Shown: in pieces, positions 652-29,317 of the stretch
Layout: each line of letters opens with the position of its first letter
Numbering within the stretch: the first letter of the stretch is position 1
Virus record (IMG/VR): IMGVR_UViG_3300044300_001206
Span: 1 to 29,540 of that record
DNA length: 29,540 nt
Reading direction: 5' to 3' (one strand)
From: a virus
Lineage: Duplodnaviria > Caudoviricetes
Notes under the pieces: model-generated
Told to the model about the DNA's origin: nothing
Seen by the model: the letters and a program-made list of their open reading frames with translations, nothing else
Database searches by the model: none
Translations under genes and position numbers: made by a program

Positions 652-1737
652 TTAACCTACAGCTGGAGCTAGAAGAGCTACAGAAGTAGACTCAGCAGCT
701 GCTAGGTCAAGTGGGAAGTTGTGAGCATTACGCTCATGCATTACTTCCATACCAAGGTTTGCACGGTTGAGTACATCACCCCAAGTAGGGACAACCTTTC
801 CTGATGAATCAACAACAGACTGGTTAAAGTTAAAACCATTCAAGTTGAAGGCCATGGTGCATATACCCATTGAGGTAAGCCATACGCAGATAACAGGCCA
901 AGAAGCAAGAAAGAAATGAAGACTACGAGAGTTGTTAAAGGAGGCGTATTGGAAGATAAGACGTCCGAAGTAGCCATGGGCTGCGACGATGTTGTACGTC
1001 TCTTCTTCTTGTCCGAATTTGTATCCATAGTTCTGTGAATCTAATCCTGTTGTTTCACGAATAAGTGAAGATGTAACAAGTGACCCATGCATAGCACTAA
1101 ACAAAGCGCCGCCAAACATACCCGCCACACCTGCCATGTGGAATGGATGCATGAGGATATTATGTTCCGCCTGAAAGACAAACATAAAGTTGAACGTGCC
1201 TGAAATGCCGAGAGGCATACCGTCACTGAATGATCCTTGTCCGAAAGGATAGACCAAGAAGACAGCAAAAGCGGCTGAGACTGGTGCGGAGTAAGCAACA
1301 CAGATCCAAGGGCGCATCCCTAGTCGATAACTAAGTTCCCATTGGCGTCCCATGTAAGCTGAGATACCGATAAGGAAGTGAAAGATAACGAGTTGATATG
1401 GTCCTCCGTTGTATAGCCATTCATCAAGACTTGCTGCTTCCCAGATTGGGTAGAAGTGGAGTCCGATAGCATTGGAACTTGGGACGACTGCTCCTGAAAT
1501 GATGTTGTTTCCATACAGGAATGATCCTGCAACTGGTTCTCTGATTCCATCAATATCAACAGGAGGTGCTGCGATAAACGCAATAATAAAACAAGTGGTT
1601 GCTGCTAGTAAGCAAGGGATCATAAGTACTCCAAACCAACCGACATAAACACGGTTATTTGTAGACGTAACCCACTCACAAAACTCAGGCCAACCTGCCA
1701 GAGAACTTCGTTCCCTAGCTTCTATAGCGGTTGCCAT
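652..1737 (-). CDS. psbA: Photosystem II reaction-centre protein D1 (phage-encoded)
   Basis: Full-length uninterrupted D1: [61 protein letters not shown]. Confidence 0.99.
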
Positions 1738-9643: not shown

Positions 9644-10675
9644 CTACTCCATTACAAACAATTTATTAGCAACTGTTTGTGGCTGAGCTTGGTTCAACAT
9701 TCTCCATGCATTTCCTGGGTCACGAGACATTTGCTCGTTGAATGTACCCCAGAAATTCTCAGGCTGTTGTGGTGGAGCAGCTTGAGGAGGTGCAGGGAAG
9801 TTCTGACCAGCTGTAGCTAAAGCGTTAGGAGTTTGAGGCTGCCCTTCAACTGCAGGCTGTTGGCCTACTGGAGCTGTTGGATATCCTTTAGTTTCTAACT
9901 GTTGCTCATTTTCATAAACAGGGTATGGACCTTCTGGACCAAAGAACTTCAATGTATAGTCACTAAGCACATCTGGGTTAGTAAGTATCTCGTTATAAGC
10001 AAGATTCTCTTGATGCTCTTGTACAGAAAAATCAGCGTATCCTTTAATTACTTCTTGTGCTCTATTTCCCCACGTTACGGCGTTGTCCAGCATTCCTTCT
10101 AGATTTACCGCGTACTGGTTTAGTACCGCTGGTGCCTCTATCCCGAACGCGTCCATCACCTGACGGCTTTCGTTGCTCATTCCTACCTGGTTCTGGACTG
10201 CGTCCAGCTGAGCCGAGGAGAGATTCGAAGAGGTTTGGGAAGAGCTGTCCGAGTATGTCTGGCTGGCTGGCGAGATCTGCGGAGCCGATTGTGGCATAGT
10301 TGGGGCGCTCACCTGACCGTAGTTGGCCTGGGTATACTGAGGAGCCGCCGTCTGAGATTGTTGACCCTGGAACGGGGATTGGACTGGAGTGCTCAGTAGT
10401 CCTACCACCTTGTTGAACGCCGATTCCCATGGACCGTCCTGCTGAGGAGCCGCCGGTTGGGATTGGGGGGCGTACTGAGTAGGGGCGGATTGGAAGCTGG
10501 GGGTTCCCTGTGGTACTGCTTGTGGGAAGCTGGTACCCACTTGATATTGACCCGGTGTCTGTGGAGCCGCCTGTGGAGCTGCTGCTGGAGCTGCCGCCAC
10601 GTAACTGCTCGGAGCCACTGTCGCTGTTGGTGCTTGGCTCGTCTGTTGGGTCGATTGGTCTGTAGCGACCTGCAT
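9644..10675 (-). CDS. Putative capsid scaffolding protein
   Basis: 343 aa, Q/P/A-rich disordered regions with a helical core; RBS AAGGAG 7 nt before the ATG; lies between portal and MCP. Confidence 0.6.
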   Translation of the reverse strand: MQVATDQSTQQTSQAPTATVAPSSYVAAAPAAAPQAAPQTPGQYQVGTSFPQAVPQGTPSFQSAPTQYAPQSQPAAPQQDGPWESAFNKVVGLLSTPVQSPFQGQQSQTAAPQYTQANYGQVSAPTMPQSAPQISPASQTYSDSSSQTSSNLSSAQLDAVQNQVGMSNESRQVMDAFGIEAPAVLNQYAVNLEGMLDNAVTWGNRAQEVIKGYADFSVQEHQENLAYNEILTNPDVLSDYTLKFFGPEGPYPVYENEQQLETKGYPTAPVGQQPAVEGQPQTPNALATAGQNFPAPPQAAPPQQPENFWGTFNEQMSRDPGNAWRMLNQAQPQTVANKLFVME

Positions 10676-12422
10676 AACTCATCTCCTTTTGTAACGCCTC
10701 GAGTGTTCGATACAGATATGGTGTCAGATCTAGGCGTGGATCTGCTGCCATAGGTAAGTCGGGTGACTGAGGATGAGGAGTCTGCATCATTCCCCCCACG
10801 AGTCTTGCAAATTGAGAGTATGCACCCTGCAATTCATTAACCATTCTGAATGGGAAGCCCGATAACATGGCAGCCCTTTCTTCATCCGTTTTCGACGGAA
10901 AGAGATACTTCAGTGCTTCTATGCTATCTACCCCTAATTCTTGTAGGTTTCTTACAACAATTGAGTTATTCAAAGTATCCTGAGTTGAGTCTTCATATAC
11001 TGGTCCGAGCCATCTCCACTGAATTGTTACATCTCCGTCTGGTATTAGACCTGTAACACCTGGTGGAATTTGCTGAGATTGCAGACATGCCATCATTAGT
11101 TGCTTAACTTGCTCTTCGTAATATCCCATTGCTTCTGTATAAAGCTTTGTCTCTTCAGGGGATGGATTAGCAGGAAGATCAATTGGTTTTTCTAAACCTA
11201 CTGCTCGTGCAAGACTCTCTTTAAATAGATTTTCTTCTTGGAAAATTATTAGTTCTAAACAACGACAAAGACCATATGTGTAAAGTGAAGTAGCTTTCTT
11301 CTTAGAAGTAGCAGCAACTCGGCCAAATAATGACTTATATTCAGTAGCAGTTACACCTGCAGATATAGATAGTTCATCTACTCCACCAAGCGCAGTTCTT
11401 ATTTCTTCTCTGTATTGACGAGAAAAAGAGTTCTGATCTCCAGTAATAGCATCAGGAACTATATAACCAACACGATCATTTGGTTCTAAGTTTGCAATAA
11501 CTCTAGGTACTCTTATCTGTCCATCAATACCACGGGATAATGGATCAGCTTTATATCGAGAACCACTTAAAGGACCTAATCCTGTAAATCCTGAATTAGA
11601 TGCAATAGAAGGACGTTGTACTTGGGCTTCTCCAGATTCCATTAAATCTGTCTTAGGACGAGAAGATAATAATGTTGGATTACCAAAGAAGGTTACGTTC
11701 TTCCTCATGGTGCGGATCATTTCATCATGAGTACATATATGGTTAGCTAGTGCATCAAACTCACCTGATCCTTCGGCAGAAAACCCTTTTGCGTTATTGA
11801 ATATCTCAACACAAGGTATAAAACCTAATGTATTAGTAAACGTCTTAGTTTTACCAGGTACACTATGATGCTGATTTTCAAAAGAAATTTCACCTTCTGA
11901 ATGAGTTTCTTCAATTGTTTTACGCTTAATAGAAAGTCTTATATATTTCTTAGTTCCTTGTTGAACACCATTTGTTGAACCTGTTAAATTCTGAGTAGCA
12001 ATATCCTGTTGATAACCTAAACCTTGACGAACTTTATAGCTATAGATAATTACAACTTCATCCAGCTGGCCATCAAGATTGTAATAGCTACGATATTCGT
12101 GCTTACGAAAATAATATAGTCTGTAATTTGTAGAGGTTGGTCGAATGTAAAAAATGCCTTGTCCATCACAAAGAAAGTAATCCCATATGGAATCAAGTCT
12201 AGTATCTAATTGATTATATTTAATTACTCTGTCTATAAAATCTTTACGTTGATTACCAAAATTATCTTGAGCAGGAAAAAATTCAACACCTTGTCTAATA
12301 CCGAATAGCTTCATCTGGGCTAAATGAGAAGCTACAATTCCTGTATCGATTCCACCTCCACCATCTCTTTCAAGATAAGAATCGATAATTTCCTTTAAAC
12401 GTGATTTAGCGTCACTAGCCAT
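10062..12422 (-). CDS. Putative portal protein with about 200-aa disordered C-terminal extension
   Basis: 786 aa; NTLGFIPCVEIFN...EGSGEFD and SAGVTATEYK motifs resemble SPP1-like portals; position between TerL and MCP. Confidence 0.75.
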   Translation of the reverse strand: MASDAKSRLKEIIDSYLERDGGGGIDTGIVASHLAQMKLFGIRQGVEFFPAQDNFGNQRKDFIDRVIKYNQLDTRLDSIWDYFLCDGQGIFYIRPTSTNYRLYYFRKHEYRSYYNLDGQLDEVVIIYSYKVRQGLGYQQDIATQNLTGSTNGVQQGTKKYIRLSIKRKTIEETHSEGEISFENQHHSVPGKTKTFTNTLGFIPCVEIFNNAKGFSAEGSGEFDALANHICTHDEMIRTMRKNVTFFGNPTLLSSRPKTDLMESGEAQVQRPSIASNSGFTGLGPLSGSRYKADPLSRGIDGQIRVPRVIANLEPNDRVGYIVPDAITGDQNSFSRQYREEIRTALGGVDELSISAGVTATEYKSLFGRVAATSKKKATSLYTYGLCRCLELIIFQEENLFKESLARAVGLEKPIDLPANPSPEETKLYTEAMGYYEEQVKQLMMACLQSQQIPPGVTGLIPDGDVTIQWRWLGPVYEDSTQDTLNNSIVVRNLQELGVDSIEALKYLFPSKTDEERAAMLSGFPFRMVNELQGAYSQFARLVGGMMQTPHPQSPDLPMAADPRLDLTPYLYRTLEALQKEMSYAGRYRPIDPTDEPSTNSDSGSEQLRGGSSSSSSTGGSTDTGSISSGYQLPTSSTTGNPQLPIRPYSVRPPIPTGGSSAGRSMGIGVQQGGRTTEHSSPIPVPGSTISDGGSSVYPGQLRSGERPNYATIGSADLASQPDILGQLFPNLFESLLGSAGRSPEPGRNEQRKPSGDGRVRDRGTSGTKPVRGKSRRNAGQRRNVGK

Positions 12423-28108: not shown

Positions 28109-28117
28109 TGATAGCAT
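28109..28117 (+). promoter_or_regulatory. Extended -10 promoter candidate (TGATAGCAT), divergent from the late region
   Basis: 33 nt before the ATG at 28151; a minus-strand TAGAAT lies at about 28084-28089. Confidence 0.4.
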
Positions 28118-28150: not shown

Positions 28151-28357
28151 ATGGACATTGAAGCTCGTAAAAATAAAGTCAAAGGACTAGAAGCCATAAA
28201 ATCTAAGGCATTAGACATGGCAACTCAGGGTGCAGACTCTCTAGAAGTACGTGATTTTGTATCAGAGGCTTCAAAAGAGTTGGCCTACAGAAATCCAGAC
28301 GAAGATGCCTTCAAGAAAGCGGCAAAAGCTAGCAAAATCTTTAAGAAACGTAAATAA
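28151..28357 (+). CDS. 68-aa helical protein with basic C-terminus
   Basis: Clean ORF followed by a terminator. Confidence 0.7.
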   Translation: MDIEARKNKVKGLEAIKSKALDMATQGADSLEVRDFVSEASKELAYRNPDEDAFKKAAKASKIFKKRK

Positions 28358-28386: not shown

Positions 28387-28410
28387 GCCGGGCTATGCTC
28401 CCGGCTTTTT
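28387..28410 (+). terminator. Rho-independent terminator
   Basis: GCCGGG-CTATGCT-CCCGGC-TTTTT. Confidence 0.8.
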
Positions 28411-28644
28411 GGTCTAGTTTCTTGGGCTGGTTGGGGATTTTTAGTACAAAACGGCACATATACTACCAAGATAGGGAATAGAAATACCGAGCGCTTCTCC
28501 ATAACCTCTCCTGATTGGTCTGCTGTATAGAAAAAAAATAAAGGGTGGGGTCGGTCATATATATGGTGGGGTAAGCAGATCTGGCACTGTGTTTTCCACA
28601 GGTAAGTCCAGAAGTGTCTCGTATATCTGTACGAGAGAGTTACT

Positions 28645-28747
28645 ATGCGTAGCTTTTTCCACACTCTGGGGAAAATGCGTAGCTTCTTTTTGTTGCTTAG
28701 CAATAATTAGTAGCTCATTTCTGTTGCTTTGCGACAGTTAGTAGCTC
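28645..28747. repeat. GTAGCT-punctuated array of short palindromes with 30-31-nt period
   Basis: GTAGCT at 28649, 28679, 28710 and 28741; ATGCGTAGCTT twice; 26-nt direct repeat 28691-28716/28722-28747 (22 of 26 identical). Confidence 0.8.
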
Positions 28748-28810
28748 GTCCAACACTGGCCTGGACTCGGATGCCAGACGTCAACGCCTAATCTACGGAG
28801 GTTTTCCACA

Positions 28811-29098
28811 ATGGCGACAACAACTCAGCGCAAATCCACTACTAAGAGCGTAGCTCCTAAGACTACTGCGCAGAAACCTGTTGAAAAGCAGGAGTTTTCC
28901 ACAATCTGGAGGCTTAAGGACCACCACACACCTGTCCTAGTTGATGGTGTAATAGAAATCAAGTGGAGCGCCAAACTCATACTTCGTTTCGTGGTCCCTA
29001 GTACCCACAAACCTGAAGACATTCTTAAGAAAGTCCAGGAAGTAGGGCGCATAGACACCTCCAAGTGGCAAAAGGAGTTCCCAGAAGTCATATTTTGA
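28811..29098 (+). CDS. 95-aa hypothetical protein, probable first early gene
   Basis: GGAGG RBS at 28797-28801; basic disordered N-terminus and small beta domain. Confidence 0.75.
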   Translation: MATTTQRKSTTKSVAPKTTAQKPVEKQEFSTIWRLKDHHTPVLVDGVIEIKWSAKLILRFVVPSTHKPEDILKKVQEVGRIDTSKWQKEFPEVIF

Positions 29099-29163
29099 GG
29101 ATTCCCGCACGAAATTAGGGAGCGATCCTTCGCACGGTTGCCTTGAGACAGAACTGTTATGAC

Positions 29164-29203
29164 CCCGGTACCTTGGTTTTCCACAACCGAGTGCCGGGTT
29201 TTT
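29164..29203 (+). terminator. Long hairpin/terminator with a TTTTCCACA at its apex
   Basis: CCCGGTA-C-CTTGGTT-TTCCAC-AACCGAG-TGCCGGG-TTTTT. Confidence 0.65.
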
Positions 29204-29215
29204 ACTGGTTCTACA

Positions 29216-29282
29216 GTTGAGCAATGCATGGTACTTGTAGTTTTCCACAACTACTTGAGCAGGTTCGACCCCTGCCTCAACA
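29216..29282 (+). ncRNA. tRNA-like element (non-canonical)
   Basis: Acceptor-like stem GTTGAG/CTCAAC, canonical T arm GCAGG-TTCGACC-CCTGC, anticodon-position hairpin GTAGTT-TTCCAC-AACTAC, no D stem, no encoded CCA. Confidence 0.6.
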
Positions 29283-29317
29283 CTTACCACCTACTGAGGG
29301 TGGTCTTAATTCAAATC

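Follow-up and report, generated by a model that had tools for sequence, protein, structure and literature searches.

Host DnaA is known to be used by phage lambda, and by plasmid-like replicons. Why, then, would a cyanophage carry six perfect copies of what appears to be the DnaA box of its host within about 660 bp, and what would DnaA do there? This question is raised by a 29,540-base contig, which is an entire virus record and was analyzed at full length (hereafter, the window). We found no description of DnaA-box arrays in cyanophages in the open-access literature.

The phage and its late/early junction

The minus strand of the window carries psbA, the major head protein, the terminase and the structural module. 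TerL shows 81% identity to that of Synechococcus phage S-EIV1 over 98%, and the next matches reach only ~23%. The window shares with S-EIV1 both this terminase and a small conserved gene (the anchor gene) at the same strand switch, and judged from these genes it is an S-EIV1-like cyanophage. An S-EIV1-related marine lineage has been described (bioRxiv 10.1101/325100), and the available part of that preprint contains no mention of DnaA that we could find. The best named matches of psbA were from Prochlorococcus phages (93%), and sequence comparison indicates that the host is probably Prochlorococcus. The dnaA gene was present in all five small picocyanobacterial genomes examined. Near-identical DNA occurs in seawater metagenomes, seven matches being possibly the window's own source. 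As a separate observation, this S-EIV1-like phage has a psbA (652-1737, minus strand) of the Prochlorococcus-phage type, and the S-EIV1 record lists no psbA.

The boxes lie at a junction, here called the hub, where the minus-strand late genes (start codon at 28117) diverge from small plus-strand genes that are predicted to be early from this divergent layout. The coding strand also switches at the hub in four complete relatives. This position supports the initial annotation insofar as it had proposed a control region. The features of the hub are as follows.

28151-28357, plus strand: conserved 68-aa gene at the late/early junction, used as the anchor for relatives (44 homologues)
28387-28405, plus strand: terminator-like hairpin 3' of the anchor gene (terminator scan)
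28495-28538, no strand assigned: conserved hub core (TTCTC ... A-run); 23 of 46 lineages, S-EIV1 among them, match the strict pattern
28592-28600, plus strand: box 1, within a TGGC...GTAAG.CCA hairpin whose variable stem it occupies; 7 of 8 close loci have it exactly
28655-28663, plus strand: box 2, first member of a head-to-head pair; exact in 8 of 8 close loci
28667-28675, minus strand: inverted copy with one mismatch, at 12 bp from box 2 (plus/minus pairs at 12-13 bp)
28679-28747, no strand assigned: 31-bp tandem repeat, candidate iteron-like; copy number varies in close relatives
28802-28810, plus strand: box 3, in the RBS-ATG spacer of the first predicted early ORF; exact in 7 of 8 close loci
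28811-29098, plus strand: predicted early ORF of 95 aa; similar ORFs in box-less sister lineages (by eye)
28895-28903, plus strand: box 4, which reads Phe-Ser-Thr in frame and is the weakest of the six; 6 of 8 close loci have it exactly
29106-29161, plus strand: conserved cis-element ending in ACTGT (HMM match in 25 of 46 lineages)
29177-29185, plus strand: box 5, 24 nt past ACTGT, where a terminator-like hairpin (29164-29203) has its loop; present in 8 of 8 close loci
29216-29281, plus strand: tRNA-shaped intercistronic element, with box 6 (29241-29249) as the loop of its middle stem (fold and sister lineages)

The 9-mer TTTTCCACA occurs six times exactly, always on the plus strand (starting at 28592, 28655, 28802, 28895, 29177 and 29241), and no further exact copy was found elsewhere in the 29,540-nt window. 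In 100 shuffles of the window the mean count was 0.52 and the maximum 3, and six copies were never reached, so the count and strand first noticed stand. These shuffles and the Markov simulation described below ruled out a chance origin of the cluster. Two one-mismatch inverted copies had also been pointed out; both are present (28667-28675 and 28879-28887), but such copies are not enriched over the window (12 vs. 11.5 expected). The copy at 28879 was therefore given no weight, and the one at 28667 counts solely by its geometry with box 2. The placements that had drawn attention were all confirmed: box 3 fills the space between GGAGG and the ATG at 28811, box 4 lies within the ORF, and boxes 5 and 6 cap stems.

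In the eighth close locus, box 1 still keeps the consensus TTWTNCACA, and its box-bearing TGGC...GTAAG.CCA context is also found in lineages L053, L062 and L140. Box 4 is also missing from a strain contig of run X11. Four close relatives lack one unit of the 31-bp repeat, and L081 has two extra. Plus/minus pairs at 12-13 bp occur in six lineages, including that of the window. A contig of 161 nt from one metatranscriptome covers 28619-28776, giving neither strand nor level and carrying no weight here, and other contigs lie on late genes; two other RNA runs had no contigs matching the window. The anchor gene has no match in Pfam or PHROG, and the 95-aa ORF has no family or atlas match. Apart from its boxes, a hairpin of the form TGGC-[variable stem]-GTAAG.CCA (28581-28609 in the window) is found close to where the early region begins in ~15 of the 46 lineages, L027, L037, L042, L043, L053 and L060 among them.

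The hub core is a candidate origin, packaging site or promoter element. It includes an imperfect inverted repeat and an A-run. In several lineages the core contains two one-mismatch DnaA-like 9-mers, which are absent from that of the window. A DNA pattern for the core matched 13 loci, mostly unrelated or duplicates, which were left out of the counts. A fixed genome end at the hub was looked for, and the contig ends of the relatives were scattered.

The hub in 46 related lineages

An alignment search with the 68-aa anchor protein identified 55 viral loci; to these the best 80 of 184 metagenome loci were added, and the window and S-EIV1 bring the total to 137. The 93 loci with at least 1150 nt downstream were kept (44 were too short and were left out) and clustered into 46 lineages, each with one representative. 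In the hub interval (+400 to +1200 from the anchor; 36.8 kb in all), TTTTCCACA was the commonest 9-mer, with 31 copies in 14 of the 46 lineages, and the 406.8 kb of flanks of the 46 representatives contained none. The interval was set after the positions were known, and the contrast is independent of its fine limits. A Markov simulation of the hub count (300 runs) gave a mean of 0.41 and a maximum of 2 against the 31 observed. At least two boxes were found in 11 of the 46 hubs, and most box-bearing lineages have one to three. Farther downstream, no box was found anywhere from +1200 to +6200, a region with ~40 kb of non-coding DNA (delimited by rough masking) in which the hub rate would predict 62. 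Position therefore matters, and this box-free stretch led us to reject non-coding slack as the cause of the confinement. Five virus records with boxes, of which one is complete and four are 39-66% complete, have 11 copies between them, 10 of these in the hub; complete genomes had zero to two stray copies outside it, similar to the reversed control, a level that does not establish avoidance of the motif there.

As to conservation in relatives, the lack of which was to refute the initial reading, the motif recurs at the same hub in the 14 lineages, but the refutation holds in part: the exact box is absent from the hub of the other 32 of 46 and from that of S-EIV1, which has a single copy of TTTTCCACA in 79 kb. 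The feature is thus optional. A link with lysogeny was considered and dropped: boxes without an integrase are found in G001 and the reverse in G003, and five records are too few. A pattern search for box 6 matched a single close relative along with six further records.

TTTTCCACA is the cyanobacterial DnaA box (PMC4674748) and fits the DnaA-box consensus TTWTNCACA. Over the 46 lineages the copies are split between the strands (20 plus, 11 minus), the six of the window being all plus. In lineages other than that of the window they are tightly grouped, with a spacing of 11, 12, 13 or 21 bp; spacings of 11, 12 and 21 bp were also seen in cyanobacterial chromosomal arrays, at six tandem-pair loci that had been chosen for an 11-13 bp pair. 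Variants keep to the consensus: in L021 box 1 reads TTTTGCACA, altered at the free fifth position alone, and a triad in L031 contains the canonical TTATCCACA. Box 2 and its inverted neighbor have the 12-bp head-to-head geometry of L031, L041 and L044. Because the copies lie on both strands and are paired at 11-13 or 21 bp as in cyanobacterial arrays, the hub boxes, including the six 9-mers of the window, very likely serve as sites for host DnaA, as the initial annotation had proposed, and we consider it highly probable that DnaA binds them. A tandem-pair scan of genomes matched many phyla, so tandem pairs as such are not specific to cyanobacteria, and the head-to-head pair pattern matched ~190 viral stretches. 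Separately, the Vulcanococcus genome G005 (C15 293845-304608 and C24 229172-229484) has forward and reverse copies of TTTTCCACA ~293-303 nt apart, four times and away from dnaN, which may mark where a small repeated element begins and ends.

A tree was made from the anchor protein (70 columns); it is weak, with few forks resolved. The lineage of the window nests in a clade of 11 (99/96), of which the other ten lineages are box-less. Multi-box hubs are scattered over the tree (10 changes), their clustering is no greater than in shuffles, and at least four of the 10 changes are forced by well-supported branches. Where the window has box 6, five sister lineages have a tRNA-shaped element with a TTTTC loop; where box 4 gives Phe-Ser-Thr, some sister ORFs read Phe-Ser-Pro (by eye); and the usual RBS spacers of the family (TTTCCT, TTATCC and TTTATCC) resemble box 3. 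Boxes 3, 4 and 6 thus look like small edits of T-rich sequence that was already there, which would explain their shared strand. The pattern reads as selection for more sites in the hub zone. Accident may account in part for boxes 3 and 4, which are few changes away from the usual spacer and Phe-Ser codons and were lost in one and two of the eight close loci, respectively. In those eight loci the non-coding boxes had 2 variable columns of 45 vs. 51 of 587 in their surroundings, a conservation not significantly higher than that of the neighboring DNA (P = 0.25, at low divergence). The six-box hub and its ten box-less sisters, some of which share the gene and the RNA elements, provide a natural comparison.

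Other repeats occupy the hub in other lineages. The palindrome TACGAATTCGTA is found in 8 of 46 (L028, L034, L047, L056, L059, L062, L117 and L138), and CGCTCGCT repeats are found in 6 of 46 (L082, L032, L098, L099, L106 and L114), which are box-less and belong to the clade of the window.

Possible roles of host DnaA at the hub

The main role that we favor for host DnaA at the hub is control of transcription, a tentative choice to which we give somewhat less than an even chance; bound DnaA would most likely regulate early transcription and not open an origin. DnaA is known to terminate transcription in an orientation-dependent manner, and lambda pR has a DnaA site at +18. In the hub, the conserved element ending in ACTGT provides a point of reference, which we infer to be a putative promoter or transcript start; a sigma-70 scan did not call it. 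Boxes are placed at +24 from ACTGT in the window's lineage, L053, L062 and L140, in different local sequence, and at -45 to -75 in L117, L041, L044, L055 and L149. These offsets cover 9 of the 14 box-bearing lineages, few of them independent, as L053/L062/L140 and L041/L044/L055/L149 are kin groups. Four of the 14 gave no match to the element, and 9 of the 11 seeds of its HMM were box-bearing. Boxes 1-4 of the window lie 258-561 nt upstream of it. If the element marks the start site, the offsets are those expected of a transcription regulator.

In the proposed mechanism, host DnaA would bind the incoming phage DNA at the perfect boxes. The boxes just before the promoter-like element or 24 nt past it, and the one over the first RBS, would alter how the early transcript is initiated or elongated, as at lambda pR, by either activation or a roadblock. 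Photosynthesis-dependent DnaA would then tie the pace of early expression, and hence of phage replication, to the light state of the host. For lambda, DnaA footprints and DnaA-stimulated transcriptional activation have been reported (PMC3985674). Like lambda pR/pO-ori, the hub would present host DnaA sites, predicted here, beside early or replication promoters on phage DNA, and as in lambda the phage would have its own initiation protein, with DnaA acting through transcription. The two differ in phage family and host, the hub promoter is putative, and the lambda sites resemble the consensus whereas the boxes of the window are perfect and as many as six (PMC3985674). In S. elongatus, 30 min without light lowers the binding of DnaA to oriC by about two thirds, and DCMU almost abolishes it (PMC6478999). 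DnaA could therefore report light; the dependence was measured at oriC of S. elongatus, neither at isolated perfect boxes nor in Prochlorococcus. A wider proposal is that unrelated cyanophage families repeatedly evolved perfect DnaA boxes at early hubs as a photosynthesis sensor, by which DnaA bound in the light would permit early transcription and replication and the infection would idle in darkness; we regard it as rather unlikely, and give the same low weight to its corollary that the lineage of the window represents a gain in progress, with boxes settling in an RBS spacer, codons and RNA loops. A phage-borne array of this kind would be a concrete cis-element for infection that follows light or for disturbed host DNA replication.

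A role in replication has to be weighed against transcription control. The initial annotation had suggested a host oriC mimic. At a true mimic, host DnaA would oligomerize, unwind the DNA and load host DnaB on the phage. The hub resembles the picocyanobacterial oriC upstream of dnaN in having the same 9-mer and, in relatives, tandem pairs (PMC4674748, PMC8287927), some of them 11 bp apart. The perfect boxes of the window outnumber those of host-family origins, which hold zero to two exact copies in the 700 nt before dnaN (scored at 26 of 30 loci, four having no upstream DNA or called start) together with degenerate boxes in both orientations over ~500 nt. Host origins often have CTA trios, a part of the DnaA-trio unwinding module (PMC8287927): at least three, (CTA)3, were found at 15 of 30 host dnaN loci, mostly directly after a box pair, vs. 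none of the 46 phage hubs with a strict pattern that misses degenerate trios. The boxes of the window are 63-282 nt apart on a single strand, interleaved with an ORF and RNA elements, instead of forming a compact cluster in both orientations. In the four complete relatives, GC skew does not invert at the hub. The complete relative G001, which has two boxes and is the only genome scanned in this respect, encodes a Prim-Pol/D5-type primase-helicase, Pol A and SSB, so that host helicase loading is not obviously needed. An oriC mimic is extremely unlikely on these grounds. It is also possible, though unlikely, that the boxes are helper sites of a phage origin, at which DnaA would aid opening or loading beside 31-bp repeats for the phage primase-helicase. 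Genes diverge from the hub, the conserved core is found there in at least 23 of 46 lineages, the 31-bp repeat abuts the head-to-head pair, and in all four complete genomes the cumulative AT skew reaches its minimum no more than 60 nt from the start of the anchor gene. This AT-skew turn, however, coincides with the coding-strand switch where GC skew does not turn, the 31-bp repeat is found in the close clade only, most lineages have no boxes, and box-bearing G001 has replication proteins of its own. DnaA boxes are contained in the iteron plasmid origins of P1, F, RK2 and pSC101. The hub is similar to these in that DnaA boxes lie beside a tandem repeat in a control region; it differs in having no adjacent Rep gene and a lineage-restricted repeat of ~2-4 imperfect copies. 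Help to a phage origin and transcription control could go together, by analogy with lambda.

The boxes could instead act on the host. Phage copies would titrate DnaA, or DARS-like pairs would modify its nucleotide state, so that host initiation is disturbed and nucleotides are freed; we judge this fairly unlikely. In addition to the few exact boxes in host-family origins, two low-GC host-family chromosomes total only 23 and 31 boxes, so four or five phage copies equal one chromosome and titration is arithmetically feasible. Boxes also appear to have been added wherever this was cheap, which would suit selection for number. A sink needs no fixed place, yet the copies are confined to the hub, and most box-bearing lineages have too few (one to three) to fit it well. 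The cores of E. coli DARS1 and DARS2 have boxes in forward-reverse-reverse order with spacings of 14 and 12 (PMC6868365). Such triads, spaced 12-13 and then 12 or 21, were found in 4 of the 14 box-bearing lineages (L029/L133, L031, L041 and L044), and the head-to-head pair is a further likeness, but its spacing is 12-13 and not 14 bp, and the window has one mismatched pair and no third box. To our knowledge, DARS are not known in cyanobacteria. Sites for a phage-encoded protein, such as iterons of a D5-type helicase, or for another host protein, with a coincidental match to the DnaA box, are very unlikely. The repeats TACGAATTCGTA and CGCTCGCT indicate that the hub hosts repeated protein sites, and CGCTCGCT and the boxes are mutually exclusive in hubs; against this, the boxes are identical with the cyanobacterial one, show the TTATCCACA substitution and host-like spacings, and are patchy although replication genes are probably core.

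The remaining alternative places the signal in RNA, as a hairpin-loop tag on the early transcript (boxB-like antitermination or an anticodon-loop decoy), and we see little chance of it. In its favor, all six copies of the window are on the transcribed strand, and boxes 5 and 6 cap stems in the same register; box 5 sits on a long hairpin with five T after it (z -2.6; not listed by the terminator scan), whose stem varies in the eight close loci while the loop is constant. The hairpin GUU-UUCCAC-AAC proposed at the outset holds for these two boxes but fails at boxes 1-4: box 1 is half in a stem, box 2 is in a stem, and boxes 3 and 4 have no fold better than shuffles, which makes four different structural contexts among six copies. 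Across lineages only 3 of 20 plus-strand copies are in hairpin loops and 11 of 31 copies are on the opposite strand, so the boxB-like tag was not borne out. The homologous loops of sister lineages are TTTTC or other short loops, and the strand bias of boxes 3, 4 and 6 is explained by the pre-existing T-rich sequence.

tRNA-shaped elements and overlapping reading frames

The tRNA-shaped element around box 6 was called by neither ARAGORN nor Rfam, and a tRNA gene or known RNA family at box 6 was rejected on this basis. Its predicted loop is 6 nt, or 8 nt if the closing pair opens, where the anticodon loop of a tRNA cloverleaf has 7 nt.

Similar intercistronic elements, with a short acceptor-like stem, one hairpin and a T-loop arm, recur up to four times per genome within 3 kb. 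They were seen in the window (29216-29310), in L029, L072, L149, L155 and others (+600 to +2900 from the anchor), and in S-EIV1. No Rfam match was obtained in four loci. Most of them are followed by a small H-type pseudoknot and then an RBS, and the second stem of the pseudoknot covaries (GCGG/CCGC, GTGG/CCAC, GCAG/CTGC and AGGG/CCCT). The elements look like an undescribed RNA family, and together with the pseudoknot they are possibly a signal for processing plus protection of the 5' end.

In the structural module, an ORF of 786 aa (10062-12422) overlaps one of 343 aa (9644-10675) in another frame by ~600 nt (10062-10675, minus strand). G001 has ORFs of 785 and 323 aa whose starts are similar to those of this overlapping pair.
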